Shown: positions 3,720 to 19,764 of the stretch, piece after piece
Layout of the letters: each line of letters begins with the position of its first letter
Position numbering within the stretch: position 1 is the stretch's first letter
NCBI GenBank assembly: GCA_902624535.1
Contig: CACNYF010000002.1
Coordinates: 3,128 to 67,127, forward strand
DNA: 64,000 nucleotides
Reading direction: 5' to 3'
DNA from: an uncultured Pelagibacteraceae bacterium
GTDB taxonomy: Bacteria > Pseudomonadota > Alphaproteobacteria > Pelagibacterales > Pelagibacteraceae
Notes under the pieces: generated by a model
Told to the model about the DNA's origin: nothing
What the model saw: only the letters and a program-made list of their open reading frames with translations
The model's database searches: none
Position numbers and translations under genes: made by a program

Positions 3720-4255
3720 TGACTATCCTTCATTACTTGCATTTCCATGTCCTGCATATATTTCATTAATTTTTCATCTAGTTTAGGAGTTGAGATATAA
3801 ATTTGTTCGTCAATAACTCCTTGGTCATTAGGTATACGTTGATAAACTATAAATTTATTTGATTTGTCTACTATCTCATAACCAGTAAATGATTTGGGAT
3901 TTTGTGTCGTGTCAAATTGACCATAATTTTTCTTCATATAATTCATCAAGGTAAGTTTTTCAGAAACAGAGTTTGTTTCATCATTTAGAGCAATTAAATT
4001 AATTGCGATTAATTCATCATTTAAAAATTTGTATTCAATAGCAATATCTTTTAAATTTTGTTCAGGACAAATGTCTTCAGCCAATATTCCGTAAAAATCT
4101 AAATTTCCATATTCTCCAGGTAATGGTGCACCAACAATTTCCTTTGATTCAAACTCTGCTCTTTTAATTCCAAGCTCAGCTTTAAAGTTACATGCAGAAT
4201 ATGAATAAGAAATAGATAAAGTTAAAATTAATATTATTTTAGTTATTAATTTCAT
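3716..4255 (-). CDS. Hypothetical exported protein in minor-pilin operon
   Basis: 179 aa ORF, N-terminal signal peptide, stop overlaps pilY1 start. Confidence 0.75.
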   Translation of the reverse strand: MKLITKIILILTLSISYSYSACNFKAELGIKRAEFESKEIVGAPLPGEYGNLDFYGILAEDICPEQNLKDIAIEYKFLNDELIAINLIALNDETNSVSEKLTLMNYMKKNYGQFDTTQNPKSFTGYEIVDKSNKFIVYQRIPNDQGVIDEQIYISTPKLDEKLMKYMQDMEMQVMKDSQ

Positions 4256-4313
4256 AAATTAATTATACCCTATTTTTAAAAATAATTTCTCTTTAAGACC
4301 ATTTTAGACATAT

Positions 4314-4997
4314 TTATTTTGGAAGTACAACAACGCTTTCAAGCGCAACTACCATTGGATCTTTTTCTTTTTTAATACCACACCCATACACTCTATACGC
4401 CATACCGTCATTTCCGGTATTATTTGCACCTTTTTTAACACTAGAACCTGAGCCTCTATAAGGAGCTGATCCAATTCTTGTTACAAAAAATTGATAATAA
4501 TATTTTAATAATTTTTGAGCCTCTTCTTTTTCAACTGTTCCGCCTTTTGAGGAAAAACTATCTCTTATTATTACTCCAAAGTTCCAGCTTTCAGCTGTCA
4601 CAACTTTAAGATTATCTTTATCTATCTCTGAAAATGAATTGTAACAAATAGTGCTTGGACTTAAATAATCATCTCTTCCAATAGACCTTGAGTTATAATT
4701 CTTTTGCGTCATATTTCCTGTGTACTTAGATGTTTGATTTGCTGGCAAATTTCTTTTTGCTGTATCTCTTTTATGACTAGAAGTATTCCAAGGTCCAAGG
4801 AATTGATTAAGAATATAACGCTCACCTTCTATTAAAGCCGTTTCAGCAACATAAAAAGTTTGTTGATAGTCTTCACTTCTATTATTACTTTGATGATCAC
4901 CAGCTGAGATAACTATTAATGCTCCACCCATCAAAGACATCACAAGCATTAATACTAATGATAAAACTAATGCAAAACCTTTTTCATTTTTTCTCAT
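4314..4997 (-). CDS. pilX: PilX-like minor pilin
   Basis: KG|FALVLSLVLMLVMSL prepilin N-terminus lacking Glu5, TFYVAETALIEGE; position after pilW. Confidence 0.85.
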   Translation of the reverse strand: MRKNEKGFALVLSLVLMLVMSLMGGALIVISAGDHQSNNRSEDYQQTFYVAETALIEGERYILNQFLGPWNTSSHKRDTAKRNLPANQTSKYTGNMTQKNYNSRSIGRDDYLSPSTICYNSFSEIDKDNLKVVTAESWNFGVIIRDSFSSKGGTVEKEEAQKLLKYYYQFFVTRIGSAPYRGSGSSVKKGANNTGNDGMAYRVYGCGIKKEKDPMVVALESVVVLPK

Positions 4998-5836
4998 TAT
5001 TGCATTCCTAAATTTCTTGCATGTGCAGTTACCACAATACTTTCTCTTAAGTATCTATCTGTCTTAACTTTTTTTCTAGTTTGATCGTTTAATGTTTCTT
5101 GAAATCTTGCTTTAATATTTCTAAAAAAATTCTTTGTTGATCTAACTGTTAAGGCGATATCAATAGTTTTAATTTTATATAATTTACTTTTTGTTGCATT
5201 CGTTGGTGTTGGAGGAGGATTTATTATTTTTCCTTCTTCATCGATAGGTATGAATACTAAGTCTTCAATATAATCTGCGATCAGTTGTTTTTTATATGTT
5301 GCATCAACTCCGTCTGTTTCAGGATTTTTCCAGTTATTAGCGGTCTTGTCCCAAATAACTTTAGTTTTATAAATTGCAAAAGCATCTATCGGAGGCTGTT
5401 TACCACCAGGTAAAGGTTTAGCATTTTTATTAGGCAATTTTGATTTTTCGCAATGATATGTGATTTTATATCTTTGATAAACATATTTTGGTGTTTTGTT
5501 TTTGTTGTAATCAACATCGCCATACACGATATCAATTTTATCACAGTCATTATTAAAATTTGATGACTTTGTAATAATTATTGGAGCATGTTGATTATTT
5601 GTTTTAACATTGTCACCATAATATTTGTACCCGGCATTTCTTATATCTCTCATCATCATTCCAATAACATCTCTTCCTTGACTTGATATTTTTGCTCTAT
5701 CAGTTACTTGAGAGTAAGAATTATTTACAACATTGTATGAAGTAAACATTGCAGCCATCATTACTACAGAAATTACAATACCAATTAAAATTTCAATTAA
5801 GGTAACTCCAGCAATTTTACTTAATTTTTTTCTCAT
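4997..5836 (-). CDS. pilW: PilW-like minor pilin
   Basis: AG|VTLIEILIG prepilin motif, MMRDIRNAGY, longest minor pilin, gene order. Confidence 0.85.
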   Translation of the reverse strand: MRKKLSKIAGVTLIEILIGIVISVVMMAAMFTSYNVVNNSYSQVTDRAKISSQGRDVIGMMMRDIRNAGYKYYGDNVKTNNQHAPIIITKSSNFNNDCDKIDIVYGDVDYNKNKTPKYVYQRYKITYHCEKSKLPNKNAKPLPGGKQPPIDAFAIYKTKVIWDKTANNWKNPETDGVDATYKKQLIADYIEDLVFIPIDEEGKIINPPPTPTNATKSKLYKIKTIDIALTVRSTKNFFRNIKARFQETLNDQTRKKVKTDRYLRESIVVTAHARNLGMQ

Positions 5837-6453
5837 TATTTAATTTGGAAATATAAGTATTTTTTCTTTGGCTTTGCATTTCCAGATGCATCAACTCGCC
5901 CAGTACTTACATTAACTTCCATTCTACCAAGTACCCATTGATCATAAATTCCTGTTCCGGTATAGTTTTTATTATTATTATAAGTGCAGCTGTTGCCTGC
6001 TGCTGCATTATTGCAGATATCATAAACTTTCAGTGCTTTTCTATTCTGTGTCCCTTTACATTTTAGCCTTCTCTTTGAAAATCTATTGTCCCATTTGTAT
6101 TTTTTAGCATCTAAAGTGTTTGTGAAAGTTTTAGAGGATGATGATCCCGTGCTACAAGTTGCAGAATTCCAGGATGCTTTACCTTTTTTTTCTTCAGATA
6201 CTAAATAATCAACAAAAGATACTTTGCTTGTGGGAGAAGTTGAGTTTTTTTCTGAAATAAGGTCTTCCGCAACCATTGATATCAAAAGGTTTGATTTTGT
6301 TCTTTCCCCCGATACGTCAATAGATCTTACAGAATATTGAACCATCTGAAAAATAGCTACAAAACCAATACCGATTATAACTGTTGATACTAGAGCCTCT
6401 ATTAGAGTTATTCCTTTCTGATTTTTAAAAAAATTACATCCTAGTCCAACCAT
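5836..6453 (-). CDS. pilV: PilV-like minor pilin
   Basis: KG|ITLIEALVS prepilin motif; ATG at 6453 (GTG at 6459 possible). Confidence 0.8.
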   Translation of the reverse strand: MVGLGCNFFKNQKGITLIEALVSTVIIGIGFVAIFQMVQYSVRSIDVSGERTKSNLLISMVAEDLISEKNSTSPTSKVSFVDYLVSEEKKGKASWNSATCSTGSSSSKTFTNTLDAKKYKWDNRFSKRRLKCKGTQNRKALKVYDICNNAAAGNSCTYNNNKNYTGTGIYDQWVLGRMEVNVSTGRVDASGNAKPKKKYLYFQIK

Positions 6454-7087
6454 TACCACTCCATCTAAATTTATTCACATTACCAAATCTTGTCCATTCA
6501 ACCAAGTAGGCAGGTTTTTCTAATCCTTTAGCTTTATTAATAGGGCACTTTCCACCATTCTTTTTAGCATTATCAAAAGTACACATTATTATATATTGAT
6601 CAGTAGCATTTGAAGGTTCGTCTAAAGTAACTCTTAATTGGTTTTTTATTTTACCTAAAGTTTTATAATGAGTTCCATTTTGTGAAAAACATATTGAGCT
6701 TTCTCTATCTATGTGAGTTGCCACATCATATGTTTTGTTATCTACTTCTGAAGTCCAAAATGAACTTGATGTATAACAATCTATTGGGTTACCACTATTT
6801 AATCTATTTGTATAAGCACTTCTTGATAATCCTCTTGTTATAATTTGTGTTGGGTTACTACCATTAGGTTTGATGTAAACTTGCACAAAAGGAAGAGAGC
6901 CCCTTTGTGATTGAGTATTTATTGAATTAATCATATTAACAACTTTTTCAGTAGAAGCTCTTAACACTCTATCTTTGTTCCAGCTCATAAAATTTGGAAT
7001 TCCAACTGCAGATACAATTGCTACAATTGAGATAACAACTAGCAATTCAAGTAATGTGAAACCTTTAATGTTCTGATCTTGCAGCAC
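6434..7087 (-). CDS. FimT/FimU-like minor pilin
   Basis: KG|FTLLELLVVISIVAIVSAVGIPNF motif; first gene of minor-pilin run. Confidence 0.8.
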   Translation of the reverse strand: MLQDQNIKGFTLLELLVVISIVAIVSAVGIPNFMSWNKDRVLRASTEKVVNMINSINTQSQRGSLPFVQVYIKPNGSNPTQIITRGLSRSAYTNRLNSGNPIDCYTSSSFWTSEVDNKTYDVATHIDRESSICFSQNGTHYKTLGKIKNQLRVTLDEPSNATDQYIIMCTFDNAKKNGGKCPINKAKGLEKPAYLVEWTRFGNVNKFRWSGNGWTRM

Positions 7088-8081
7088 CTGGATCTATTTT
7101 CCCTGCTTTAGCTAACTCTTCTAAAGATTTTTCCATTGTTATCATTCCATCTCTTACTGCAGTTTGCATGATACTTGGAATTTGATGAATTTTAGCTTCT
7201 CTGATTAAGTTTTGTATTGGTGCCGTACATTTCATAATTTCAAATGCGCCAACTCTACCTGCACCGTCTCTAGTTTTTAATAATCTTTGTGTGACAACCA
7301 TTTTTAAAGAAGTTGAAATTTGAGCTCTTATTTGTTCTTGTTGCTCGGGTGGAAATACATCAATAATTCTGTTTATTGTACTTGGTGCACCACTTGTGTG
7401 AAGAGTTCCAAATACTAAGTGACCAGTTTCAGCAGCAGTTAATGCAAGACTAATAGTTTCCAAGTCTCTCATTTCTCCAACTAAAATTACATCTGGATCC
7501 TCTCTAAGAGCTGCCTTTAAAGCTGCAGCAAATGTTTCAGTTTGTTTTCCCACTTCTCTATGAGAAACAATACTTTTGTTATCTTGGTGTATAAATTCTA
7601 CTGGATCTTCTACTGTAATAATGTTTGCAGTTCTTGTTTTATTTATTTCATTAACAATTGCTGCAAGCGTAGTTGATTTACCTGAGCCTGTTGGTCCTGT
7701 AACCAAAACTAAGCCTTTATGAAAGTCCACAATATCATAAAGAGATTGTGGTAAATTAAATTGATCCATTTCAGGAATTTTACTTTCTACTCTTCTACAA
7801 ACACACGCTGGACCTTTAATTGTTTTATAAAAGTTTGCTCTAAATCTTAATCCACTTAATGATACAGAAGTATCTAACTCATGTGTTTTATCAAATTTAT
7901 TCAATTCATGTTCGTTACAGTTCATTGATAACAAATCTTTTAAATCTTGAGCGGTAACCATTACTTCTTGAACTTTAATAATCTCACCTGTCTGTCTGTA
8001 AGCTAATGGAGCTCCAGCCCTTATGTGGAAATCGGAAATCTTCTTGTTATTTTTTGCCAGTTCTTCTAATTTTTCAAACAT
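7065..8081 (-). CDS. pilT: Type IV pilus retraction ATPase PilT
   Basis: GPTGSGKSTT Walker A, LREDPDVILVGEMRD, GHLVFGTLHT, PIQNLIRE (AIRNLIRE-like). Confidence 0.95.
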   Translation of the reverse strand: MFEKLEELAKNNKKISDFHIRAGAPLAYRQTGEIIKVQEVMVTAQDLKDLLSMNCNEHELNKFDKTHELDTSVSLSGLRFRANFYKTIKGPACVCRRVESKIPEMDQFNLPQSLYDIVDFHKGLVLVTGPTGSGKSTTLAAIVNEINKTRTANIITVEDPVEFIHQDNKSIVSHREVGKQTETFAAALKAALREDPDVILVGEMRDLETISLALTAAETGHLVFGTLHTSGAPSTINRIIDVFPPEQQEQIRAQISTSLKMVVTQRLLKTRDGAGRVGAFEIMKCTAPIQNLIREAKIHQIPSIMQTAVRDGMITMEKSLEELAKAGKIDPGAARSEH

Positions 8082-8207: not shown

Positions 8208-9923
8208 ATGAAAAATCCTTTTGCTAATCTTTTTAAGAAAAAGAGTAAAGATGGTGCACCAGATAAACCTGTGCCAAAGCCAGATGCGGGAAAAAAGAAA
8301 GAGGGTTTTTTTAGTAAACTTTTAAAAAATAGATTAGGAAAATCTTCAATAAAAGGTGAGGAAATTTTAGGTGTTGAATTGACACCAAGCGAAATTAGAC
8401 TTGCTCAAGTATCAAGTAATAAAGCAAACCAATGGGTTTTAGATAAATTTTTTGTTCACAAATTCGAGGGAGTTCCTGATGGCGGCACTGTTTTAGAAAA
8501 TCAAGATAAAATTGCTGAAGAACTAAAGTTAGCTTTATTAAAATCAAAAGTATCAACAACAAACGCTGCAATAGCAATTCCAGTCACTAGTGCGATCATT
8601 AGAGTGGTGACCGCACCTTTGATGACAGAAGAAGAATTAAAAAAAGCAATCGATACTGACTCACTTTGGGAAAATTTAGTTCAACTAACAGATAACTTGG
8701 CAGAATATTCAATATTCCATCAGGTCATAAATAAAGATGAAAAAGCTAATACGATGGATATCTTGTTCGTTGCCTCAAAACTTTCTGACATTAATAGTTA
8801 TACAGCAATCATAAAAAAAGGTGGACTAAATGCTGTAATCATCGATGTTAAATGTTTTGCTTTAAAATCAGCTGTAGATCAAATAAATCAAATAGCAGGT
8901 TCAATTGAAGATTCTAATTTAACAGCTGTTTTAGAATTTGGATTAGATGAGAACTACGTAATGATACTTTACGAAAATAACCCAATAATAACTGATATCT
9001 TTATTAGAGCTCAAGACAGAAAAACTTTATCTGAAAGTAATAATCAAGAAGAAATGGATGCTTTAGTCAGAAGGTATATGACACAGGTCAAGCAAGCCGT
9101 TCAAGATTTTGAAACAAAATATGAAAAGAGAATTAGAAATTTAAAAGTCACTTCTAATTTGCCAAATGTAGAAGACTATTTAGCAAGCTTTAGAAAAAAT
9201 ATGGTTAATACTGGTTATAATCTTTTTAATCCATTTGATGGAATAAAAGTTCCTGCACAGATAGAAAATGAAACTAAATTAAGCAACCCTTCTTATTTTT
9301 CAACAGTTATGGGTTTAGCATTTAGAAAGCTTGATGTTTTTGGATATTATAAATTTGTAACTGCAGTAAAAAATATTAACTTACTTCCCAATCGAGAAAA
9401 TATGATAGCGCAAAAAAAAGCTAAAGCATTTTCTAATTTTGCATTTAAAGGAATAGCAGGAATTGTTGTAGTTATATACCTTGTTCTATTTGGATTTTCA
9501 TTTTGGCAAATTACTGACTTAAATAAAAAAATTGCAGGATATGAGGAAGTAATTCAAACACATGAATTAAGAACATTAGAAAGAAATAAATATCTTAAAG
9601 AGAAAAAATTAATGGATAAATCGCTAGAATTAAGCAATTCAATTAAATCAAATAAAACAATAAGTTTTAGAGTATTAGCTCAAATAGCATCAGCAGTACC
9701 GAAAAGAGTTAAGTTTGATTCTATTGAATATAACGGGTCAGATTTAGTGATAATTCAAGGATCAGCATTTAGTGATCAAGATATATTAAAATTAATCAGC
9801 AATTTAAATAATAAAAAATTAATTTCTCAAGCATCCCTTGCAAGTATGACGTTGCCAAATGAACAACAGGGTTCACAAACAATGAAGGGTTTTAAAATTG
9901 CCTGTATATTGGAGAACGTATAA
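8208..9923 (+). CDS. Fused PilM-PilN alignment protein
   Basis: N-terminal PilM-like actin fold (LGVELTPSEIRLAQ, GLAFR) followed in frame by the PilN signature INLLP, one TM helix and a PilN-like periplasmic domain. Confidence 0.85.
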   Translation: MKNPFANLFKKKSKDGAPDKPVPKPDAGKKKEGFFSKLLKNRLGKSSIKGEEILGVELTPSEIRLAQVSSNKANQWVLDKFFVHKFEGVPDGGTVLENQDKIAEELKLALLKSKVSTTNAAIAIPVTSAIIRVVTAPLMTEEELKKAIDTDSLWENLVQLTDNLAEYSIFHQVINKDEKANTMDILFVASKLSDINSYTAIIKKGGLNAVIIDVKCFALKSAVDQINQIAGSIEDSNLTAVLEFGLDENYVMILYENNPIITDIFIRAQDRKTLSESNNQEEMDALVRRYMTQVKQAVQDFETKYEKRIRNLKVTSNLPNVEDYLASFRKNMVNTGYNLFNPFDGIKVPAQIENETKLSNPSYFSTVMGLAFRKLDVFGYYKFVTAVKNINLLPNRENMIAQKKAKAFSNFAFKGIAGIVVVIYLVLFGFSFWQITDLNKKIAGYEEVIQTHELRTLERNKYLKEKKLMDKSLELSNSIKSNKTISFRVLAQIASAVPKRVKFDSIEYNGSDLVIIQGSAFSDQDILKLISNLNNKKLISQASLASMTLPNEQQGSQTMKGFKIACILENV

Positions 9924-10561
9924 TGGATTTAAAGAACATGACAATGGACGATCTAAAACAGAAATTTTCTACTATAGATAAAAAGACACTTATAAAATTT
10001 GGAATAGGATTTGGAGCAATTATTCTCTTCTTAATTATTTACTATGCAATCCTAAATCCGATGGTTAAGGAGAGAAAAGCAAAATACCAAGACAAAATTC
10101 AAAAAGAGCAAGAAATAGTTGATTTTGAAAATAATATTATATCTTTAAAAAAAACTATAAAAAAAATGAAACCGAAGTTTGAAGAAACGTCAACTTTATT
10201 TCATTCAAAAGCAGAAGTAGAGGATCTCTATCAAAGTCTTAGTAAGCATGCAGCAGTCAATGGTTTGGTTATTTCAAAAATAGAAAAAAAAGAACCAAAA
10301 CCAGTTTTAAAGGTTGGAGTGACAGATCAGTCAGAAAATAATCTTCAAAAAGAAATGGTCTCATATTACAAAATTCCAGTAGACTATGAAATTAAAGGAA
10401 ATTTCTTAGGTTATATAAAGTTCAAAAGAGCAGTATCTAAGCAAAAGAAAATGTTAAATTTTGACAAAGAGACGATAAGTGTAGTACAAAATGATTCAAC
10501 TGGAGCGATAGTTGCTACAGGAGAGTTAACCATAGTAGGAATGCCAGATGAGTTTTTTTAA
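9923..10561 (+). CDS. pilO: PilO
   Basis: Single TM, coiled coil, YYKIPVDYEIKGNF motif; position. Confidence 0.85.
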   Translation: MDLKNMTMDDLKQKFSTIDKKTLIKFGIGFGAIILFLIIYYAILNPMVKERKAKYQDKIQKEQEIVDFENNIISLKKTIKKMKPKFEETSTLFHSKAEVEDLYQSLSKHAAVNGLVISKIEKKEPKPVLKVGVTDQSENNLQKEMVSYYKIPVDYEIKGNFLGYIKFKRAVSKQKKMLNFDKETISVVQNDSTGAIVATGELTIVGMPDEFF

Positions 10562-10997
10562 AATATTAATTTTTTTAGTTTTGATGTTAATACCGACAAT
10601 TTCTTTTTCTGATAGCCATGATCAAAAGAAAGAAGTTTTAGAACAGGTAAAAGAAATTGCTAAAGAAATGGAAGATGATGAGGAGGTTCCTCTTAATGAT
10701 CCTTTTGCTGGAAATGAGGGAACAAGCTCGATGTCTGGAAATATACCTGAAGATGAACAGGAAAATGAACTAAGTTTATATAATTTTAAATTAGCAGGAC
10801 TTATATCAGGAAAAGATTATAGCTATATATCAATCGTTAATTCTGGTGGAGAAGTTTTAACTCTATCACTTGGACAATATTTAGGAAAAATTCAACTAGT
10901 AGATTTAAGATTAAATGAAGCAATATTTAAAAAAGAAGATGGAAAATTTATGATCATAGATTTTAACGGACAAGTAAGAGAGGCAGATGATTATTAA
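10548..10997 (+). CDS. pilP: PilP-like protein
   Basis: NDPF and LYNFKLAGLI motifs, GQYLG; between pilO and pilQ; no Cys, so no lipobox. Confidence 0.7.
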   Translation: MSFFKILIFLVLMLIPTISFSDSHDQKKEVLEQVKEIAKEMEDDEEVPLNDPFAGNEGTSSMSGNIPEDEQENELSLYNFKLAGLISGKDYSYISIVNSGGEVLTLSLGQYLGKIQLVDLRLNEAIFKKEDGKFMIIDFNGQVREADDY

Positions 10998-12549
10998 GAA
11001 ATATTACAACACTCTTTTGGTTATATTATTTGCATTTTTATTAAGTGCTTGCGGCCCAAACTCAAAATTTCAAAAAAAATACAACAAACCTTTTAAGCAT
11101 AATACACCATTAATTAAAGACAAAGCTATAGTAGAGTCAGGAAAATCTGAAGTTGCTAAAACTCTAGAGATGGGTCCTAAGCCATTAGAAGGAGACTCTC
11201 GAAAATTAGGCAAAAGAAAAAAAATATCATCTGAGGCTCAAAGAAACTATTTAATTATCTCTGATGAATATCCATTATTAAAACAAAGAGTAACACTAAA
11301 ATTTAAAAACTTAGATTATAAAGAAACCATGAAGTTGATGGGTAAAATCGGTGAAATTAATATTCTAGTAGGCGATGAAGTTGCCGGAGCAATTTCAGCA
11401 GAATTAATTGACGTTCCTTGGGATAAAGCTTTTCAGGCTTTATTAGATATGAAAAATTTTGCATCCGATGTAGATGTTGCAAGTAACTTAATTAGAATTC
11501 ACTCACCAGAAACATTAACTGCACAAGAAACTTATAAATCTGAAAGAGCACAAGCCGTAAAAAAGAAAGTAGAATTAGAAGACAGTGTTGAACCGATTTA
11601 TTCTGAAATATTTAGACTTTACTATATAACGCCAGCTCAAGCTAAACAAACAATTGAAGAATTATTTACTCAATCATCTGGTGATAGCTCTTATACACCA
11701 ATACAAATTACAGAAGAAATTACCACTCGTTCAATTATAGTAAGAGGTAAAGAAAAAGACTTAGACGTAGTTGATAAAGTTGTTAAAGAGATAGATATTA
11801 GAACAAAACAGGTTTTAATTGAGGCTTTCATTGTTGAAGCTAATTCAGATTTTGAGAGAGCGCTTGGTGCTAGGCTAGGCGGTTATTATAATAAATATGG
11901 AAAAATAGCAGGGGGTACAGCAAGCACTAGCAGTGGAAGTGCATTCGGAACTGATTTAGATACTGCTGCAGGTCTAGGATCAGCAACAGATAGTATAGCT
12001 AATTTTCCAGTTACTGGTGCTACAAGTGGTATCGGAATTTTGAGACGAACACCTGCAGGAGTTCTTAAAGCTGAAATTACTGCATTAGAAAGTTCGGGTA
12101 TGGGTAAAACCATATCAAATCCAAAAGTGTTTACTTTAGATAACCAATTGGCCACTGTTACACAAGGTGAAGAAATTCCATATCAAACAACATCTGATGG
12201 TACAACTTCTACTTCTTTTAAAGAAGCTGCATTAAAATTAGAAGTCACTCCAAGTATTATCGGTGATGGAAATGTTCTTTTAACTATCAAGGTAAATAAT
12301 GATACACCAAATAGATCAGCAGGAGGTGATGAGCCACCTATTAATAAAATGGAAATTGTAACAAAATTGTTAGTTGCAGATGGAGATATTGTTGTAATTG
12401 GTGGTATCAAGAAAAATGTACTATCTCAAAGTAAAAACCAAACCCCAGGTATTGGTAATATGCCTGTAATCGGTAACCTCTTTAAAGGCAAAGCAAATTC
12501 TGATAACCTAGATGAATTATTGGTATTTATAGCACCAAGAATTTTATAA
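10987..12549 (+). CDS. pilQ: Secretin PilQ (short, predicted lipoprotein)
   Basis: VPWDKA, QVLIEAFIVEA, QGEEIPY, LKLEVTP, PVIGNLFK, ELLVFIAPRIL; lipobox LSAC. Confidence 0.95.
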   Translation: MIIKKYYNTLLVILFAFLLSACGPNSKFQKKYNKPFKHNTPLIKDKAIVESGKSEVAKTLEMGPKPLEGDSRKLGKRKKISSEAQRNYLIISDEYPLLKQRVTLKFKNLDYKETMKLMGKIGEINILVGDEVAGAISAELIDVPWDKAFQALLDMKNFASDVDVASNLIRIHSPETLTAQETYKSERAQAVKKKVELEDSVEPIYSEIFRLYYITPAQAKQTIEELFTQSSGDSSYTPIQITEEITTRSIIVRGKEKDLDVVDKVVKEIDIRTKQVLIEAFIVEANSDFERALGARLGGYYNKYGKIAGGTASTSSGSAFGTDLDTAAGLGSATDSIANFPVTGATSGIGILRRTPAGVLKAEITALESSGMGKTISNPKVFTLDNQLATVTQGEEIPYQTTSDGTTSTSFKEAALKLEVTPSIIGDGNVLLTIKVNNDTPNRSAGGDEPPINKMEIVTKLLVADGDIVVIGGIKKNVLSQSKNQTPGIGNMPVIGNLFKGKANSDNLDELLVFIAPRIL

Positions 12550-14297
12550 TGATTAACATTAGTAGAGAGTCAGAGATAAATTTAATTAATATCTTGATAG
12601 ACCAAGATATTATTTCTGGAAAAGATTTAGCCGAAATCAAAAAAGTTTCTAGCGATGGAAACAAATCACAATTAGATGCTGTATTTGAATTAAATCTTAC
12701 AGATGAACAAAAAATTTTAGATTTATTAGTTCATGATCAATCATTAGATGTTGTTGACTTATCAACAATACAAGTAACTGATGAGCTAAAAGCTGTACTT
12801 CCTTCTAATTATATAAATATGAATTTTATAGCACCATTTAAAATTGATGGAAAAGTTTTACATATTGCAATTTCAGATATTTCAAAGTTAAGTTTGATGA
12901 GAAACTTAAGAACTATTACAAAAATGGATATTGAGCTTCATGCAGCAAAAGTTTCAGATATTTCAAATTTTGTAGATAAACTATTAGCAGATGGAGAAAA
13001 AACTATTTCGGATATTAGACAAACTCAGGCAGAAAAAACTAAAACATTTGATTATGATGTAGATGAACAAGCTGAAGTTCTAGAAAGCCAACCCGAAGAG
13101 GATATAGAAGCAATAGAAAACGAGTCTGAGGTTATTAAATTTAGCACTGCTGTTGTTGCTGATGCTATTAAATCAGGTGTATCCGATATACATATTGAGC
13201 CATATAGATTTTCTTCAAGAGTTAGATATAGATTAGATGGAATTCTTACAGAACAAGAACACTTCAAAAAATTTTTACATTCTAATTATGGTGCTGTTGT
13301 TACAAGATTTAAAATTATGGGAAAATTGGATATTGCAGAAAGAAGACTTCCACAAGATGGAGCTATACCATTTAAAATTGATGGAAAAGTAGTGGACTTA
13401 CGTTTATCTATTTTACCTACTGCAACGAATGAAAGAATTGTAATGAGGGTTCTTAACAAAGATGCAGGAGACATAAGTTTAGAGCAATTAAATTTTGAAG
13501 AAACAGATCTTAAAAATTTAAGAAAAGCAATTCACGGTACACAAGGATTAGTATTGGTTACAGGACCAACAGGTTCAGGAAAGACAACAACATTGTACAG
13601 TATTCTTAAAGAAGTATCTAAGCCTCATCTAAACATTTTAACGGCTGAAGATCCAGTTGAGTATGAACTTGATGGTGTTGGACAAGTTCAAATTAAAGAT
13701 GATATTGGTTTTAACTTTGCAACAGCGTTGAGATCATTTTTAAGACAAGACCCAGAAATAATTCTAGTTGGAGAGATGCGGGATAAAGAAACAGTTGATA
13801 TAGGATTAAAAGCAGCGCTTACAGGACACTTAGTTTTCAGTACACTACACACAAATGATGCCCCTAGTACTATTACAAGATTACAAAATATGGGCACTCC
13901 AGATTATTTAATAAGCGCGGCTGTGAGTTTGGTGTTAGCACAAAGACTAGCGCGAAAAACTTGTACAGAATGTAGAGAGCCAGACAATGACATTACTCCA
14001 AAAGCACTAGCAGACCTAGGTTTTACAGTTGAACAAGCATCTAGAGCAAAAGTACAAAAAGGAAAAGGTTGTCCAAAATGTAAAGATACTGGTTACAAAG
14101 GTCGAATGGGAATTTATGAAATTTTAAATGTTACAAAACCAATAAAAGAAGCAATATTAAGAAAAGCTACAACACCAGAGTTAAAAGAAATTGCATCTAA
14201 TGAAGGCTTTAGAACAATGCAAGATATGGGAAGAGAACTTATATTAACTGGAGACTTAAATTTCAGAGAATTTGATAGAGTTCTTTCTATGGATTAA
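12549..14297 (+). CDS. pilB: Type IV pilus extension ATPase PilB
   Basis: SDIHIEP, LDIAERRLPQDG, GPTGSGKTTT, LRQDPEIILVGEMRD, CTEC...CPKC zinc site. Confidence 0.95.
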   Translation: MINISRESEINLINILIDQDIISGKDLAEIKKVSSDGNKSQLDAVFELNLTDEQKILDLLVHDQSLDVVDLSTIQVTDELKAVLPSNYINMNFIAPFKIDGKVLHIAISDISKLSLMRNLRTITKMDIELHAAKVSDISNFVDKLLADGEKTISDIRQTQAEKTKTFDYDVDEQAEVLESQPEEDIEAIENESEVIKFSTAVVADAIKSGVSDIHIEPYRFSSRVRYRLDGILTEQEHFKKFLHSNYGAVVTRFKIMGKLDIAERRLPQDGAIPFKIDGKVVDLRLSILPTATNERIVMRVLNKDAGDISLEQLNFEETDLKNLRKAIHGTQGLVLVTGPTGSGKTTTLYSILKEVSKPHLNILTAEDPVEYELDGVGQVQIKDDIGFNFATALRSFLRQDPEIILVGEMRDKETVDIGLKAALTGHLVFSTLHTNDAPSTITRLQNMGTPDYLISAAVSLVLAQRLARKTCTECREPDNDITPKALADLGFTVEQASRAKVQKGKGCPKCKDTGYKGRMGIYEILNVTKPIKEAILRKATTPELKEIASNEGFRTMQDMGRELILTGDLNFREFDRVLSMD

Positions 14298-14300
14298 TAA

Positions 14301-15542
14301 ATGTCCTCAGAAACATTTACATATAAAGGTATTTCAGCAGGAAAATATATTGAGGGCGAAATAGAGGCTCTAAATCAGGAAGAAGCGTCATATAAGCTAA
14401 AAGAACAAAAGATAATAATAACCAATTTAGTTAAAGCAAAAAAGAAAAAAGCAGCTAAAGAAAAAGGCAAAAAAAGCAGTTTTTCATTTGGAAAGAAAAA
14501 AGTTACGCCTCAAGATGTAATGATTTTCTCAAAACAGTTTGCAACCATGGTTAAAGCAGGTCTTCCAATTTTAAATGTACTTTCAATGCTACGTGATCAA
14601 ATTGAGCATCCAACAATGAAAGAAATTATTGAGGATATTAGAAAAAGTCTAGAAGGGGGTATAACACTTTCAAAATGCTTTGAAAAATACCCAAAGGTTT
14701 TTGACAATATTTATATAAACTTAATAAAAGCAGGTGAGGCTAGTGGTAAATTAGATGTTTTCTTACTCAAGTTAGTAGATTCACTTGAAAAAAGAGAAAA
14801 AGTAAAAAAAAAAATTAAAAGTGCATTAACGTATCCTGTTGTCATGTTTACAGTAGCAATAACTGTAATGGTATTCATGTTAATTAAAGTTGTTCCAATA
14901 TTTGCTGAAATGTATGAAGGTATGGGAGTACCTTTGCCAACACCTACAGCAGTCATTATGAATGCCAGTAATTTTATGAGAGGAGCAGGTGGTTTAACTT
15001 TATTTTTAGTTTTAGCAATAGGATTTGCTATTTTTAAATACACAACAACGAAAATACCTGCAGTAAGATATAAATGGCATTATAGAGTTTTAAAAATGCC
15101 TGTATTTGGAGATATGATTTTAAAATCTTTAATTGCAAGAGTTTCTCTTATTATGGGTAATCTTAGTTCTGCAGGCGTAAATTTACTTGAAAGTATAGAA
15201 ATTGCAAAACAAGTAAGTAACAATGATGTTGTCACTCAAGCTTTGGAAAATGTAAAAAAAGGTGTTTTCTCAGGAGATACATTAACAAAACTATTTTTAA
15301 AAGAACCAGTATTCCCTGCAACTTTTAGTCAGCTAATTTCTGTTGGAGAGCAGACAGGAAATTTAGATGAAATGTTTACATCAGTATCAGCTTATTATGA
15401 AGAAGAGTTTGATACAGCTGTAGATAATATGTCGAGTTTAATTGAGCCGATTATGATTGTATTTATGGGTACAATGATCGGTGGTTTAATGATAGCTATG
15501 TATTCACCAATCTTTAATGTTGGTGCAATTATCGGAAGTTAA
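14301..15542 (+). CDS. pilC: Inner-membrane platform protein PilC (GspF family)
   Basis: KAGEASGKLD, ALTYP, GEQTGNLDEM, LIEPIMIV. Confidence 0.95.
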   Translation: MSSETFTYKGISAGKYIEGEIEALNQEEASYKLKEQKIIITNLVKAKKKKAAKEKGKKSSFSFGKKKVTPQDVMIFSKQFATMVKAGLPILNVLSMLRDQIEHPTMKEIIEDIRKSLEGGITLSKCFEKYPKVFDNIYINLIKAGEASGKLDVFLLKLVDSLEKREKVKKKIKSALTYPVVMFTVAITVMVFMLIKVVPIFAEMYEGMGVPLPTPTAVIMNASNFMRGAGGLTLFLVLAIGFAIFKYTTTKIPAVRYKWHYRVLKMPVFGDMILKSLIARVSLIMGNLSSAGVNLLESIEIAKQVSNNDVVTQALENVKKGVFSGDTLTKLFLKEPVFPATFSQLISVGEQTGNLDEMFTSVSAYYEEEFDTAVDNMSSLIEPIMIVFMGTMIGGLMIAMYSPIFNVGAIIGS

Positions 15543-15967
15543 TAATCTATTTTTTTAGATAATATTAAATGGTTGATCCAAGGCTTTTCGCCTTCTTTAA
15601 ATACTACTGCATCCATTATTTGTTGAATAAAAAAAGTTCCAAGACCACCTGGTTTAATATCATCTATTTTTCTGTGCCTAATTTTATCTTTTTCAACTGG
15701 TCTCCCTTTATCAAAAAAACCAATTTCTAAATTTCCATTTTCTAAAGAGATTTTAATCTCCATTCTATCTTCAGTATCTTCACCTTGGTAAGCATGTTTT
15801 ACAATATTCTGAGCTGCTTCTGCTATCGCTAATACTAATTCATCTTTTAAGTCTTGTTCAATATTTACTTTTTCAAAAACTTCTCTTGAAAAACTTCTTA
15901 CATCTTTAAGGCTAGATGAACTTACAACAAAATCTCTCTGTTCTGATATTTGAGCAAGATTATTCAT
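15539..15967 (-). CDS. RsbW/SpoIIAB-like anti-sigma factor Ser kinase (GHKL)
   Basis: N-box EAAQNIVKHAY, FDKG, PGGLGTFFIQQIMD. Confidence 0.9.
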   Translation of the reverse strand: MNNLAQISEQRDFVVSSSSLKDVRSFSREVFEKVNIEQDLKDELVLAIAEAAQNIVKHAYQGEDTEDRMEIKISLENGNLEIGFFDKGRPVEKDKIRHRKIDDIKPGGLGTFFIQQIMDAVVFKEGEKPWINHLILSKKIDY

Positions 15968-15970
15968 TAT

Positions 15971-16270
15971 TTATCCTAAGTTTAAAATTTGCTCCAGTTT
16001 TGCCATCATGATTACTTTTAAAACTGATTTGCTAATATCTTTTAAGATGACTTTTGTCCCAAGTTCAGTTGCTTTTTGATGACTTTCAATTAATACAGAT
16101 ATTCCAGAAGAGTCCATGTACTGAACTTCTTTTAAATTTAGATGAACTTCTTTTTTTGCCTCAATAAGAGGCATTATAACTTCTTTTGCTTTTTCTGTTA
16201 CATCCATATCAATTTCACCATCAAGGTGAACAATTGATATTTCTCCTTCTTCTGTAACTTTGTATGACAT
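15971..16270 (-). CDS. RsbV/SpoIIAA-like STAS anti-anti-sigma factor
   Basis: LDGEID and VQYMDSSGISVL with the conserved phospho-Ser motif. Confidence 0.9.
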   Translation of the reverse strand: MSYKVTEEGEISIVHLDGEIDMDVTEKAKEVIMPLIEAKKEVHLNLKEVQYMDSSGISVLIESHQKATELGTKVILKDISKSVLKVIMMAKLEQILNLG

Positions 16271-16412
16271 AAATATTAATATTTATTAAATTTACCTGTG
16301 AAATCAACAAAAATGACCCATTTTGAATATATTATGTATGTAGATATTGACTTTCAAAAGATATAGTTATTATGTATATACATATTTTTTATTTAAAATA
16401 GGATCATAAATT

Positions 16413-16877
16413 ATGAAAAAAAATAATAAAGGTTTTACACTTATAGAATTATTAGTCGTTGTAGCAATCATCGGTATTTTAGCTGCCGTTGGAGTTGTTG
16501 CTTATTCTGGTTACACAAAGGGAGCAAAAAAATCAGCAGTTAAATCAAATCAAGCTGCAGTTATTAAATATGTAGCCGCAGAATTAAAAAAATGTGAGAT
16601 TGGTGAAACAGATGTCATGGTTAAAGGCAATGATAAACTAGTTTGTGCTGATAGAAAAAAATCTACAAATACAGCAGTTGCAGTAGAAAAAGCATTAGGC
16701 TCAGAGTTTAAAAATCCATACAGAACATCAGAGTCTGCGATTCAAACTTCTACGATATCATGCAGTGGTAATGGTGAAGGACAAACCGCTGTAGTACAAG
16801 TTGGTACTACAATCACAGTTTCATCTTGTGAAGTCGATGGAGCCACACTTTTATCTGGTACTGTTACCATAGAATAA
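16413..16877 (+). CDS. pilA: Type IV pilin, probable major pilin
   Basis: KG|FTLIELLVVVAIIGILAAVGVVAY; AGGA RBS; first gene after an intergenic promoter region. Confidence 0.85.
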   Translation: MKKNNKGFTLIELLVVVAIIGILAAVGVVAYSGYTKGAKKSAVKSNQAAVIKYVAAELKKCEIGETDVMVKGNDKLVCADRKKSTNTAVAVEKALGSEFKNPYRTSESAIQTSTISCSGNGEGQTAVVQVGTTITVSSCEVDGATLLSGTVTIE

Positions 16878-16889
16878 ATTTAAAATTTT

Positions 16890-17297
16890 ATGACAACCAG
16901 GAGCTCAGGTTTTACGCTAATTGAGCTTTTGGTTGTTGTTGCAATTCTTGGAATAATTTCAGCAATAGGAATCGTCAGTTATAATGGTTACGTATCGTCA
17001 GCAAAAAAGAAATCTGCAGAAAATATAATTCTACAAATTTCACTTGCACAAAGTGAATACTACTCTGATGAGGATAGATATTTTACTCCTGGATGCGGAC
17101 CTAATAATTCAACATCGACTACTTTAGAAACAACACTACTTGGTGGGTCCGACGTTATAACACCTGAGATTGGTTATGAATTTTGTTCTCAAGGATCTGC
17201 AGAAAATTATACAATTATTGCTCAAGAAACTGGGACTAAATCACCATGCAAACTTGAATATACAGATAAGTCTGTTTGGACAAGAACTAATTGTTAA
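16890..17297 (+). CDS. Type IV pilin, PilE-like
   Basis: SG|FTLIELLVVVAILGII, AQSEYYSDEDRYF, C-terminal Cys pair. Confidence 0.85.
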   Translation: MTTRSSGFTLIELLVVVAILGIISAIGIVSYNGYVSSAKKKSAENIILQISLAQSEYYSDEDRYFTPGCGPNNSTSTTLETTLLGGSDVITPEIGYEFCSQGSAENYTIIAQETGTKSPCKLEYTDKSVWTRTNC

Positions 17298-17299
17298 TA

Positions 17300-17551
17300 A
17301 TGAACATTGAGATTAGTAAATATTTAGAAAAAGTTAAATTTGTTTTTTCTGGAGATCTCTCAAAAAATTTTAAGATCTATGCAACTCTTAGTTTAGCATG
17401 GATAATTTTTATTGGGTACTTGACCTGGTGGAACGGTTTAAGTAGTCCGATGTTAGACAAAAGCTTTAGATGGGATGAGTGGTTCTGGTTTGGGATTGTT
17501 CCCGCTCTATCTCCTTACTTATTTTATTTTATCTGGAAAAAGAAAGAGTAA
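17300..17551 (+). CDS. Small Trp-rich membrane protein, unknown function
   Basis: Two hydrophobic segments; ATG at 17300 (TTG at 17291 possible). Confidence 0.7.
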   Translation: MNIEISKYLEKVKFVFSGDLSKNFKIYATLSLAWIIFIGYLTWWNGLSSPMLDKSFRWDEWFWFGIVPALSPYLFYFIWKKKE

Positions 17552-17613
17552 CAAACCTAATTTGAGCATCAATTATCTATGATGAATACTTTTTTATAAT
17601 AATTTAGGGAAAA

Positions 17614-19764
17614 ATGGAGAGTGTAGATTTGGATTCAGTAAAATCATTTGTTGATACCCTTTGGGTTATAGATTGTGCAATTCTTGTTTTTATAATGCAA
17701 GCAGGTTTTATGTGTATGGAGACAGGTCTTTCTAGGCACAAAAATAGCATAAATGTTGCTCTTAAAAATGCTGCCGATTTTGGTGTAGCAGTTGTAATTT
17801 TTTGGATTTTTGGTTTTGGTTTAATGTTTGGAAAAAGCTATAACGGTTATTTTGGAACTGACTTATTCTTTTTTAAAACAGATCAGGCTGAATATATGAC
17901 TTATTTTGTGTTCCAAGCAATGTTTGTTGCAACTGCTGCTACAATCGTTTCAGGTGCAGTAGCAGAGAGAATGAAATTTAATGGATATTTAATTTTAACT
18001 ATTCTTGCCACAGGTATTATTTATCCAATTGTTGGTCACTGGGCTTGGTCCTCAAATTATTTAAACAATATTGATGCAACAAGACAGTTACTTGCAGTTA
18101 CAGGACAAGTAAAGACTACTGGATGGCTAACAGATATAGGATTTGTCGATTTTGCAGGAAGCACAATAGTTCATTCAGTTGGTGGATGGATTGCTTTATC
18201 GGCAGTTTTAATCTTAGGCCCAAGAATTGGAAAGTATTCTGATGCTAATAAAGGAAAATTTACAGGTTCAAGTTTTCCACTAGCAGTTTTGGGGACTTTA
18301 ATTTTATGGTTTGGTTGGTTTGGTTTTAATGGTGGTAGCAATGGTGCTATGGATGAAGCGGTACCATTAATTTTAATTAATACATTTCTTGCAGCTGCAT
18401 TTGGATTATTAACAGGTCTTGGTATTTCATTTATTTTATTTAAAAAACCAGATCCCTATTACGTTATTATAGGTCCTTTGGCAGGTTTAGTTTCAATAAC
18501 TGCTAGTTGTAACTCTTTAACTTCAGTTAGTTCAATTTTTGTTGGAATTATTGGAGCCGTGGTTGCCATTGCTATAAATGAATTTTTAGAGAAAATCGAA
18601 ATCGATGATGTTGTAGGCGCCGTTCCTGTTCATTTAGGAGCTGGAGTTTGGGGTACTATTGCTGTAGCAATGTTCGGAGACCTTGAGATTCTTGGAACAG
18701 GACTATCGAGATTGGAACAAATTAAAGTTCAATTTATTGGCGTTGTCTCAATAGGTGCATTTGCTTTTATTGGATCATACTTAATTTTAAAAATTTTAAA
18801 TTATTTCTATCCGTTAAGAGTAAGTCCATTACATGAAGAGTTAGGTCTTAATATTGCTGAGCACAATGCAACTTCTGTTGAGCACGATTTGATTTCAATT
18901 TTAGAAAAGCAATCTGAGTCTGGTGATTTAACAATTAGAGGTCCCCAAGATCCTTTTACTGCAGGAGGTGTAATAGGACTCTATTATAATAGATTGATGA
19001 GTAAACTAGAGACAAGTGAAGCCGAAAAGAAAGTATGGAGAGACAGAATTTCAAATGAAGTAAAACTTGCTGTGAAAGTTCAAGAAAATTTCTTACCAAA
19101 AAGAAACTTAGAAAATTATCCTGTGCACGGAATTAATATTGCTGCTAGAGAAGTTTCTGGAGATTTCTTCAGCTTTTATCCTCACAATGATAGTGTTTAC
19201 TTTATTATTGCAGACGTTGCGGGTAAAGGAATTCATGCCGGAATGGTAATGGCAAAAGCATCAACTTTATTTGAGATTATGTCTAGAGATCAAGTAGATC
19301 CAGATGAAATGATGTTTCATATGAATAATGATCTATTTTTAACTAAAACTGGAGGCATGTTTGTTACTAGTATATTGGGAGAATATAACATGAGGACTGA
19401 TGAATTAAGATGGGTAAATGGAGGTCATCAACCTGCTATTATTAGATCATCATCTGGAAATTATGAACAATTCGAGAGTAATTCACCGCCTATGGGCGTA
19501 ATACTTCAAAAGGACAAATCAGTTTATAAAACGCACAAAGTTAAGTTAGAAAATAATAGGTTTTATGCGTTCACTGATGGTTTATCTGAAAGCTTAAATA
19601 GCTCAGGTGAAGAAATAGGAATAGAGGGATCATTAAAAATAATAGAGAAAAATTTTAATACAGATTCTAGCAAACAATTATCAGATATATCAAATAGCGT
19701 AATTGATACTGCTGGGGATAACAAGCTAAGTGACGACTTAACCTTAATATCTATAGGTAAATAA
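17614..19764 (+). CDS. Ammonium transporter (Amt) fused to HAMP-like linker and SpoIIE/PP2C Ser phosphatase
   Basis: Amt motifs FQAMF, SGAVAER, DFAGSTIVH, LWFGWFGFNGGS, DDVVGAVPVH; linker GDLTIR...YNRLM; PP2C motifs VSGDFF, IADVAGKG, NGGH, FTDGLSE, SDDLT. Confidence 0.93.
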   Translation: MESVDLDSVKSFVDTLWVIDCAILVFIMQAGFMCMETGLSRHKNSINVALKNAADFGVAVVIFWIFGFGLMFGKSYNGYFGTDLFFFKTDQAEYMTYFVFQAMFVATAATIVSGAVAERMKFNGYLILTILATGIIYPIVGHWAWSSNYLNNIDATRQLLAVTGQVKTTGWLTDIGFVDFAGSTIVHSVGGWIALSAVLILGPRIGKYSDANKGKFTGSSFPLAVLGTLILWFGWFGFNGGSNGAMDEAVPLILINTFLAAAFGLLTGLGISFILFKKPDPYYVIIGPLAGLVSITASCNSLTSVSSIFVGIIGAVVAIAINEFLEKIEIDDVVGAVPVHLGAGVWGTIAVAMFGDLEILGTGLSRLEQIKVQFIGVVSIGAFAFIGSYLILKILNYFYPLRVSPLHEELGLNIAEHNATSVEHDLISILEKQSESGDLTIRGPQDPFTAGGVIGLYYNRLMSKLETSEAEKKVWRDRISNEVKLAVKVQENFLPKRNLENYPVHGINIAAREVSGDFFSFYPHNDSVYFIIADVAGKGIHAGMVMAKASTLFEIMSRDQVDPDEMMFHMNNDLFLTKTGGMFVTSILGEYNMRTDELRWVNGGHQPAIIRSSSGNYEQFESNSPPMGVILQKDKSVYKTHKVKLENNRFYAFTDGLSESLNSSGEEIGIEGSLKIIEKNFNTDSSKQLSDISNSVIDTAGDNKLSDDLTLISIGK

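Follow-up and report, generated by a model that had tools for sequence, protein, structure and literature searches.

Analysis of a 64,000-nucleotide stretch of DNA from an uncultured Pelagibacteraceae bacterium (contig CACNYF010000002.1 of assembly GCA_902624535.1; hereafter, the window) revealed genes for a kinase, a STAS protein and an Amt-SpoIIE fusion among those of a type IVa pilus. The genome holding the window (G000) is 0.99 Mb, 71% complete and about 30% GC. The original prediction, made from the letters of the window, was that these genes form an ammonium-sensing partner switch of the RsbU/RsbV/RsbW type built into the pilus locus, and open reading frames (ORFs) and Pfam matches confirmed that all three are present and intact. 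The RsbW/SpoIIAB-type GHKL serine/threonine kinase (142 residues; 15539-15967, reverse strand; Pfam HATPase_c_2, E 9.5e-20) is convergent with pilC (14301-15542, forward strand; Pfam T2SSF), and the stop codons of the two genes overlap by 4 bp. A gap of 3 bp separates the kinase from the gene for a STAS-only protein of 99 residues (15971-16270, reverse strand; Pfam STAS, E 4.1e-17, with alignments to RsbV and SpoIIAA). This gene is in turn divergent, across a 142-bp spacer (16271-16412), from that of the major pilin PilA (154 residues; 16413-16877, forward strand; Pfam N_methyl), which has the same position as pilA (SAR11_0054) in strain HTCC1062 of SAR11, a bacterium abundant in the ocean. 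Further along the forward strand, a gene at 17614-19764 encodes a 716-residue protein in which an Amt domain of predicted receptor type (residues 17-420, Pfam Ammonium_transp, E 2e-110; about 17662-18873) is joined by a HAMP-like linker (to about 19020) to a PP2C phosphatase (residues 526-714, Pfam SpoIIE, E 4e-35; about 19189-19755).

The kinase has an N-box (E50/N54), D86-x-G88 and PGGLG, and the RsbW N and G boxes were kept in all 65 kinase sequences that were aligned. It matched the RsbW of PDB entry 6m36 by sequence comparison (E 1.6e-5), and its predicted structure (pLDDT 83) is SpoIIAB/RsbW-like, with 1l0o as the best Foldseek match (E 4e-10, TM 0.81). A search for homologues returned solely close relatives among the best 120 of 5624 matches. 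Its Arg24 is invariant and presumably corresponds to Arg20 of SpoIIAB, a residue in contact with both sigma factor and STAS protein. In the STAS protein, the phospho-acceptor Ser54 (codon 16109-16111, within YMDSSG) aligned with the phospho-serine of RsbV and SpoIIAA, and the D-S-x-G motif was present in 63 of 64 STAS sequences, the remaining one being frameshifted. The window STAS is 72–76% identical to the 99-residue STAS of two-STAS loci having the same layout. Both STAS proteins of HTCC1062, SAR11_0055 and SAR11_0056, carry pS54 in the supplement of PMC13198564, in phosphopeptide groups of 883 and 1199 peptide-spectrum matches whose site assignment is shared among Ser/Tyr positions. The available parts of that source name RsbW as the only annotated Ser/Thr kinase of HTCC1062 and report no protein phosphatase. 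Adjacency and homology suggest that the kinase and STAS protein would bind one another and exchange partners. That the kinase, STAS protein and PP2C form one switch, as had been proposed, is most likely, and all 34 genomes found to have the fusion also have the kinase.

The Amt-PP2C fusion as a predicted ammonium receptor

The closest structures to the Amt domain were the ammonium receptors Sd-Amt1 of Shewanella denitrificans (8qj3; PMC11152129; 388 bits) and Ks-Amt5 of Kuenenia (6eu6; PMC5764959; 294 bits), whereas transporters scored at most 152 bits. The core of the domain has the Trp/Ser pair, Phe gate and twin His (W145, S242, F104, F236, H187 and H340). The N1/N2 ligands Q29, E36, N52, D55, T110 and S113 and the switch pair K51/Y125 are also present; the reference residues in Sd-Amt1 are Q22, E29, N45, D48, T104 and S107, with K44/Y119 as the switch, and the roles of these residues are those given in the available part of PMC11152129. 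The ligands, Lys/Tyr pair, gate and twin His were found in all 42 fusions (with Thr changed to Ser in two), as were the metal-binding aspartates of the PP2C domain (D517, D534, D655 and D707/708). The two ordinary Amts of G000 are without the receptor Gln and Asp. Based on these residues, the Amt domain is predicted to be of the ammonium-receptor type, binding NH4+ without transporting it, and the sensor type assigned to it in the original prediction is supported.

The fusion also shares with Sd-Amt1 and Ks-Amt5 a helical linker, which had no Pfam HAMP match and is HAMP-like by eye and according to PMC11796062. It differs from them in its output, a PP2C phosphatase in place of a diguanylate cyclase or histidine kinase, and in having Ile in place of Asn269. 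A fusion of the same length and architecture has been described: the 716-residue Amt-HAMP-like-phosphatase of a SAR11 genomic island, Amt-GI5 (gMED; SAR11_0049/0050 in HTCC1062), was proposed in 2025 as a likely ammonium sensor, with no substrate named in the available part of PMC11796062. The gMED Amt set comprises proteins of 716, 466 and 433 residues, and that of G000, 716, 466 and 429, a likeness that together with the HTCC1062-type gene order points to a SAR11-like genome. According to the same part of that source, the genomes described there contain no further phosphatase domains, whereas the genome of the window has a GAF-PP2C, a STAS/kinase pair and a link to the pilus. Residues about 10-470 of the fusion matched other fused Amts in 13 of 400 genomes of the phylum. 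The phosphatase part was matched in none of the 15 of those 400 having a close Amt relative (two candidates scored per genome), and none of 44 Amt relatives on viral contigs extended into it. No assay of an ammonium receptor with a phosphatase output was found in the literature examined.

Co-inheritance of the switch with type IVa pili

Our survey covered 151 genomes of the order, G000 included; all others were at least 85% complete, and one (G076) was counted in denominators and the sigma tally only. The kinase was found in 65 genomes, a SpoIIE match in 66, pilC in 75 and the Amt fusion in 34. Every one of the 65 kinase genomes carries both pilC and a SpoIIE-type phosphatase, the kinase being present in 65 of 75 genomes with pilC and in none of 76 without it. 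A small STAS gene was found in 64 of the 65 (the exception is a contig break), and in 64 of the 65 no more than about 10 kb separates the kinase from pilC. Genes for the kinase, STAS protein and sensor phosphatases have been inherited jointly with those of the type IVa pilus, and the conserved association with pil genes for which the original prediction had suggested a synteny survey was borne out.

We mapped the surroundings of the kinase in all 64 kinase genomes apart from G000, those of pilC in nine of the ten pilC genomes without the switch, and 20 further stretches. In layout A, seen in 44 genomes including that of the window, STAS is divergent from pilA, and 17 of the 44 loci have two STAS genes. 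Layout B (four genomes) has STAS-kinase near pilD, and layout C (17 genomes) has the kinase near pilT, with a long STAS gene directly before pilD in the four genomes mapped. The link between switch and pilus spans three pilus lineages, whose PilC proteins are 40–49% identical and whose gene orders differ. Distances in the kinase tree follow those of PilB, PilC and PilQ in the 54 loci having all four genes (r 0.95–0.98), a correlation that is inflated by kinship and linkage.

The fusion is one of several sensor phosphatases in these genomes. A second phosphatase of G000, a GAF-SpoIIE protein (G000:C19:5129-6418), is encoded divergently from pilD. The corresponding gene of G093, a genome with an Amt fusion 95% identical to that of the window, lies in the same island as the kinase but at its opposite end, 24 kb away, so that phosphatase genes likely flank the pilus island on both sides. 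Across loci the inputs comprised a GAF-PP2C, a CHASE2-PP2C accompanied by FecR and a barrel protein, a receiver-PP2C paired with a hybrid kinase, and Amt-PP2C fusions of two paralogous types, of which the longer usually has a periplasmic HMA gene beside it. This HMA (CxxC) protein, which has a signal peptide, is encoded before the longer paralogue at most loci (e.g., L036:14063-14422) and beside the kinase in several layout C loci, and could be a periplasmic partner. In genus g2 (L115:1046-7002), a HisKA-like/receiver PP2C adjoins a Cache-HAMP hybrid histidine kinase and a lone receiver.

Output of the switch

No extra sigma factor accompanies the switch. Proteins with Sigma70_r2 numbered two in 62 of the 65 switch genomes, one in two and three in one, as in switch-less genomes of the family, a count that could miss a very divergent extracytoplasmic function sigma factor. 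The two sigma-70 family proteins of HTCC1062 are named RpoD and RpoH (PMC13198564). The Bacillus switches RsbU/RsbV/RsbW-sigmaB and SpoIIE/SpoIIAA/SpoIIAB-sigmaF have the same three folds and phospho-serine as the SAR11 switch but also an alternative sigma factor, which the latter is without. With its PP2C, STAS protein and kinase, the SAR11 system works like a partner switch, yet the absence of a cognate alternative sigma factor sets it apart from the canonical family.

There are precedents for a STAS protein acting as the output, namely Nostoc HmpV, Rhodobacter RbaV, Vibrio SypA (SypA/E) and Bordetella BtrV (PMC6495340, PMC8256260, PMC3999984). Nostoc HmpU/HmpV/HmpW likewise comprise a PP2C, a STAS protein and a kinase, with STAS output and no known sigma factor in the available parts of PMC6495340 and PMC8256260, and are needed for motility driven by type IV pili. 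They differ in being a cyanobacterial developmental system with a chemotaxis-like pathway and no Amt input, and the resemblance is one of likeness rather than of established common descent. RbaV/W/Y of Rhodobacter, a proteobacterial switch for which no cognate sigma factor was found, controls a gene transfer agent (PMC3999984), and BtrU/V/W of Bordetella exerts post-transcriptional control on a surface machine, type III secretion (PMC8256260). An exchangeable repertoire of sensor phosphatases is a feature of the SAR11 switch that is not described for Rba or Btr in the available parts of those two sources. Each component is of a known kind, and both the fusion and the placement of STAS/RsbW are separately in print, the latter through a figure legend in a 2026 preprint (bioRxiv 10.64898/2026.10.07.757358) that shows the two in the pilus locus. 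The joined system is accessory, being present in 65 of 151 genomes. No publication joining the fusion, the STAS/kinase pair and the pilus was found in a literature search that included few subscription papers and no preprint supplements.

The reading that we favor, to which we would give about an even chance, is that of a sigma-less, multi-input phospho-switch likely tuning pilus activity post-translationally, in which the Amt fusion is a predicted, non-obligatory input for ammonium. In this scheme the kinase would almost certainly phosphorylate Ser54 of the STAS protein, a phosphorylation that the HTCC1062 orthologue is known to undergo in vivo. Each cell has between one and four sensor PP2Cs (GAF, CHASE2, receiver or Amt), which would very probably dephosphorylate one common STAS protein. 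By analogy with Sd-Amt1, we are confident that binding of two NH4+ at N1/N2 in the Amt trimer would be relayed to the phosphatase by the HAMP-like linker. On the same analogy ammonium would switch the phosphatase on, leaving the STAS protein unphosphorylated when ammonium is present; we lean only slightly towards this direction, which is opposite to the nitrogen-limitation picture first proposed. The unphosphorylated STAS protein would be the output, as for Nostoc HmpV and Rhodobacter RbaV, and would act on the pilus machine, which is the probable target. Its partner would most plausibly be a motor ATPase whose cyclic di-GMP (c-di-GMP) input is lost. The MshEN domain of PilB in the window lacks the c-di-GMP motif, and what we take to be that motif was scored in PilB N-termini and found in none of 70. 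This absence of the usual second-messenger input from PilB makes a protein regulator plausible. A c-di-GMP output of the switch itself was rejected, as GGDEF was found in none of five genomes checked.

Several observations weigh against this reading. The apparent K0.5 of Ks-Amt5, about 23 mM, is far above the ammonium of seawater, which is in the nM to low µM range. The fusion fits all spacings of the published receptor motif, QX6EX15NX2D(F/T)X54-60TX2(S/T), but the long one, which at 53 residues is one short (a one-residue loop gap against Sd-Amt1), and the motif also occurs in some true transporters (PMC11152129). The pS54 of SAR11_0056 changed 0.15-fold in carbon limitation, 0.5-fold in light and 2.4-fold at 8 °C, shifts that were not found in the available table of significant sites of PMC13198564, a phosphoproteome in which nitrogen was not varied. 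PilA protein, at 0.73-fold under nitrogen limitation, was mid-range among about 695 significant proteins (STAS was eleventh from the bottom; row order of Table S2, PMC3870248), and there was therefore no specific nitrogen response in its abundance. Ten pilC genomes are without the switch (one by a weak and one by a partial pilC match), including lineages D and E, which nest beside the lineage of the window in the pilus trees, ((A,D),E), B, C; pili therefore work without it. Co-occurrence is partly physical linkage in one island, where autotransporter, FecR and barrel genes are found too, and related genomes are not independent in the counts. We found no direct link of the STAS protein to any pilus protein, and residues exclusive to the switch-bearing pilus lineages (PilB 4, PilC 1, PilQ 0, PilMN 1, PilT 2) were no more numerous than those of other lineage trios. 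A predicted complex of full-length PilB with STAS (18- and 20-row alignments) scored 0.00 twice against a mark of 0.32, which is no answer rather than evidence either way.

Among the alternatives, it is unlikely that the output is a core sigma factor, such that the kinase sequesters RpoH (or, as in Chlamydia, RpoD) and transcription changes when unphosphorylated STAS releases it. The Chlamydia precedent, the resemblance of the kinase model to the anti-sigma factor SpoIIAB and its invariant Arg24 are consistent with such an output, as is a 2.5-fold rise in groEL mRNA in nitrogen-limited stationary cells (p 0.04, q 0.46; PMC3870248). Both sigma factors, though, are universal, whereas the switch is found in under half of the genomes and always alongside pili; pil mRNAs were flat in those same nitrogen-limited HTCC1062 cells, and the Rhodobacter switch operates with no cognate sigma factor found. 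Rather improbable, too, is that the switch governs adhesins, autotransporters, the envelope or other functions, or that the kinase acts broadly and is titrated by STAS. The islands do hold autotransporters, FecR, outer-membrane barrels and PilY1 variants, and HTCC1062 has 555 phosphoproteins, with phosphosites on PilT, PilB and PilMN, for one annotated Ser/Thr kinase (PMC13198564). Outside the order, a similar kinase was found in 28 of 400 phylum genomes, where kinase-STAS-PP2C sets adjoin ABC transporters and pilB, pilC or pilQ was present in none of 20 kinase loci fetched. Against this, the pilus core is the only gene set that accompanies every switch among the loci mapped, and 86 of 151 genomes have no kinase, which is thus not the general kinase of the clade.

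The circuit first envisaged, dedicated to ammonium, increasing pilin expression when nitrogen is limiting and substituting for P-II, now appears very unlikely. The fusion lies less than 5 kb from the kinase in 27 of 34 genomes (22–29 kb in three, more than 400 kb in two, undetermined in two), and a pilus island was enriched in nitrogen-poor water in one comparison (PMC12789548), both of which would suit such a circuit. Ammonium is not a dedicated input, as 31 of 65 switch genomes are without the fusion and 33 of the 34 fusion genomes have another PP2C. For transcription in HTCC1062 the circuit is largely contradicted by Table S2 of PMC3870248, which gives mRNA and protein ratios for nitrogen-limited versus replete stationary cells. 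There, pilA mRNA was 0.85 (p 0.56), and the mRNA/protein ratios were 1.06/0.78 for pilB, 1.21/0.98 for pilQ and 1.23/1.58 for pilP, against 1.91/5.16 for glnA and a 2.7-fold rise in amtB mRNA. In that experiment, pilin expression is therefore not governed by nitrogen. The switch genes gave 0.92/0.37 (STAS SAR11_0055), 0.92/0.61 (rsbW) and 0.99/0.54 (rsbU); levels of the two fusions stayed near constant (1.21/0.95 and 1.05/0.88), which fits a receptor. Metatranscriptome contigs cover the region piecewise and in small shares, and can neither rank its genes nor show transcription. The absence of glnK/glnB beside amt, once taken to hint at PII-independent signaling, carries no information because SAR11 in general has lost P-II (PMC3870248); G000, at 71% completeness, yielded no P-II gene, P-II was present in one of five genomes checked, and both P-II and the fusion are absent from most SAR11 genomes. 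Least probable of all is a passenger fusion, a cassette at a gene-turnover site with another substrate or mainly a transporter's role: the slot after the pilins is filled by different cassettes across genomes, five fusions lie 22 to >400 kb away and the N1/N2 motif is shared with transporters, but none of the 86 genomes without the kinase has the fusion, which in G079 is the sole SpoIIE match, its cytoplasmic exit position is Ile/Leu/Thr rather than the Ser of Af-Amt1, and two ordinary Amts exist in the genome.

A bolder form of the sigma-less phospho-switch, which we consider doubtful as a whole, is that one STAS hub binding the pilus motor directly replaced c-di-GMP and sigma-factor control of pili in SAR11, with strains swapping sensor phosphatases (ammonium receptor, GAF, CHASE2-FecR, receiver) as cassettes. 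If this were true, ammonium would signal that particles or lysed cells are near and switch pilus-mediated capture of DNA or nutrients, and the PP2Cs would be the protein phosphatases reported missing by the SAR11 phosphoproteome study. The locus joins three published puzzles: the role of SAR11 type IV pili, called unclear and linked speculatively to DNA uptake in nitrogen-poor water (PMC12789548); the partner of the Amt-phosphatase (PMC11796062); and the protein phosphatase of HTCC1062 (PMC13198564). Its components, namely a substrate whose phosphosite is known, a kinase and as many as four phosphatases, make up a system that is small enough to reconstitute and that a cultured strain possesses.

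The STAS-pilA spacer and neighboring pilus genes

A conserved palindrome of the RYYCA-W3-TGRRY type (16315-16329, no strand) lies in the spacer, 45 nt before the STAS start. De novo motif discovery recovered it from 19 of 23 dereplicated spacers between STAS and pilA, four rows having been dropped before matrix building, with a mean score of 17.6 versus 8.7–9.8 in shuffles that were run with fewer restarts. The palindrome recurs, mostly 50–70 nt before starts, at pilMN, pilT, FecR, lipoprotein, HMA, autotransporter and symporter genes in loci spanning L034-L130, and is likely a transcription-factor site. A role as a switch-specific operator was rejected because the palindrome is also present in switch-less pilus loci and was not enriched in non-coding DNA of G000 (four matches versus one to five in shuffles). 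Its strict pattern was modestly above control in genomes with and without the switch alike. A search of the DNA for an NtrX motif gave nothing usable, and a promoter scan was at chance level (21 versus 22.1).

The second pilin (135 residues; 16890-17297, forward strand) matched ComP_DUS (E 1e-7) in addition to N_methyl, a family match that makes it a putative DNA-binding pilin only. Between it and the fusion is a small hydrophobic membrane ORF of 83–86 residues (17291/17300-17551, forward strand), which matched no named family in a family search and is pilus-associated in that it also occurs directly before pilD in the switch-less locus L129. The assembly genes pilMN-pilO-pilP-pilQ-pilB-pilC (8208-15542, forward strand) were assigned from ORFs and Pfam, the name pilP resting on position and the HTCC1062 annotation as it had no Pfam match. 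On the reverse strand are pilT (7065-8081; Pfam) and, in the same 1-8081 region, minor pilins, PilX (4314-4997) among them, and a PilY1-like gene cut by the window start; the names PilY1 and pilV/W/fimT rest on position and N-terminal motif, with no family match. With pilD on contig C19, the type IVa set of PilA, B, C, D, M/N, O, P, Q and T was found in full, and the gene order of the window is that of the HTCC1062 annotation. In HTCC1062, PilT Ser52 and PilMN Ser272 are significantly changing phosphosites and PilB Thr543 was 5-fold up in carbon limitation (PMC13198564); all three are possible direct kinase substrates.

Beyond the island, G000 has three more pilin genes (C1:42833-43805 and C10:8178-8687), and its contig C28 is 44% GC within the 30% GC assembly. 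In four single-contig genomes (L060, L061, L063 and L064), pilC or nearby pil genes are split or frameshifted, reflecting assembly error or decay. Switch-less pilus loci often have arrays of three to 11 pilin genes directly after pilC (L098, L100, L101, L102 and L104), where switch-bearing loci of layout A have two. The STAS proteins of layout C (L114:8632-9162, L120:393-902) have an acidic tail of 70 residues, rich in proline, with a conserved basic motif at its end; their genes are divergent from that of a zinc-ribbon protein.

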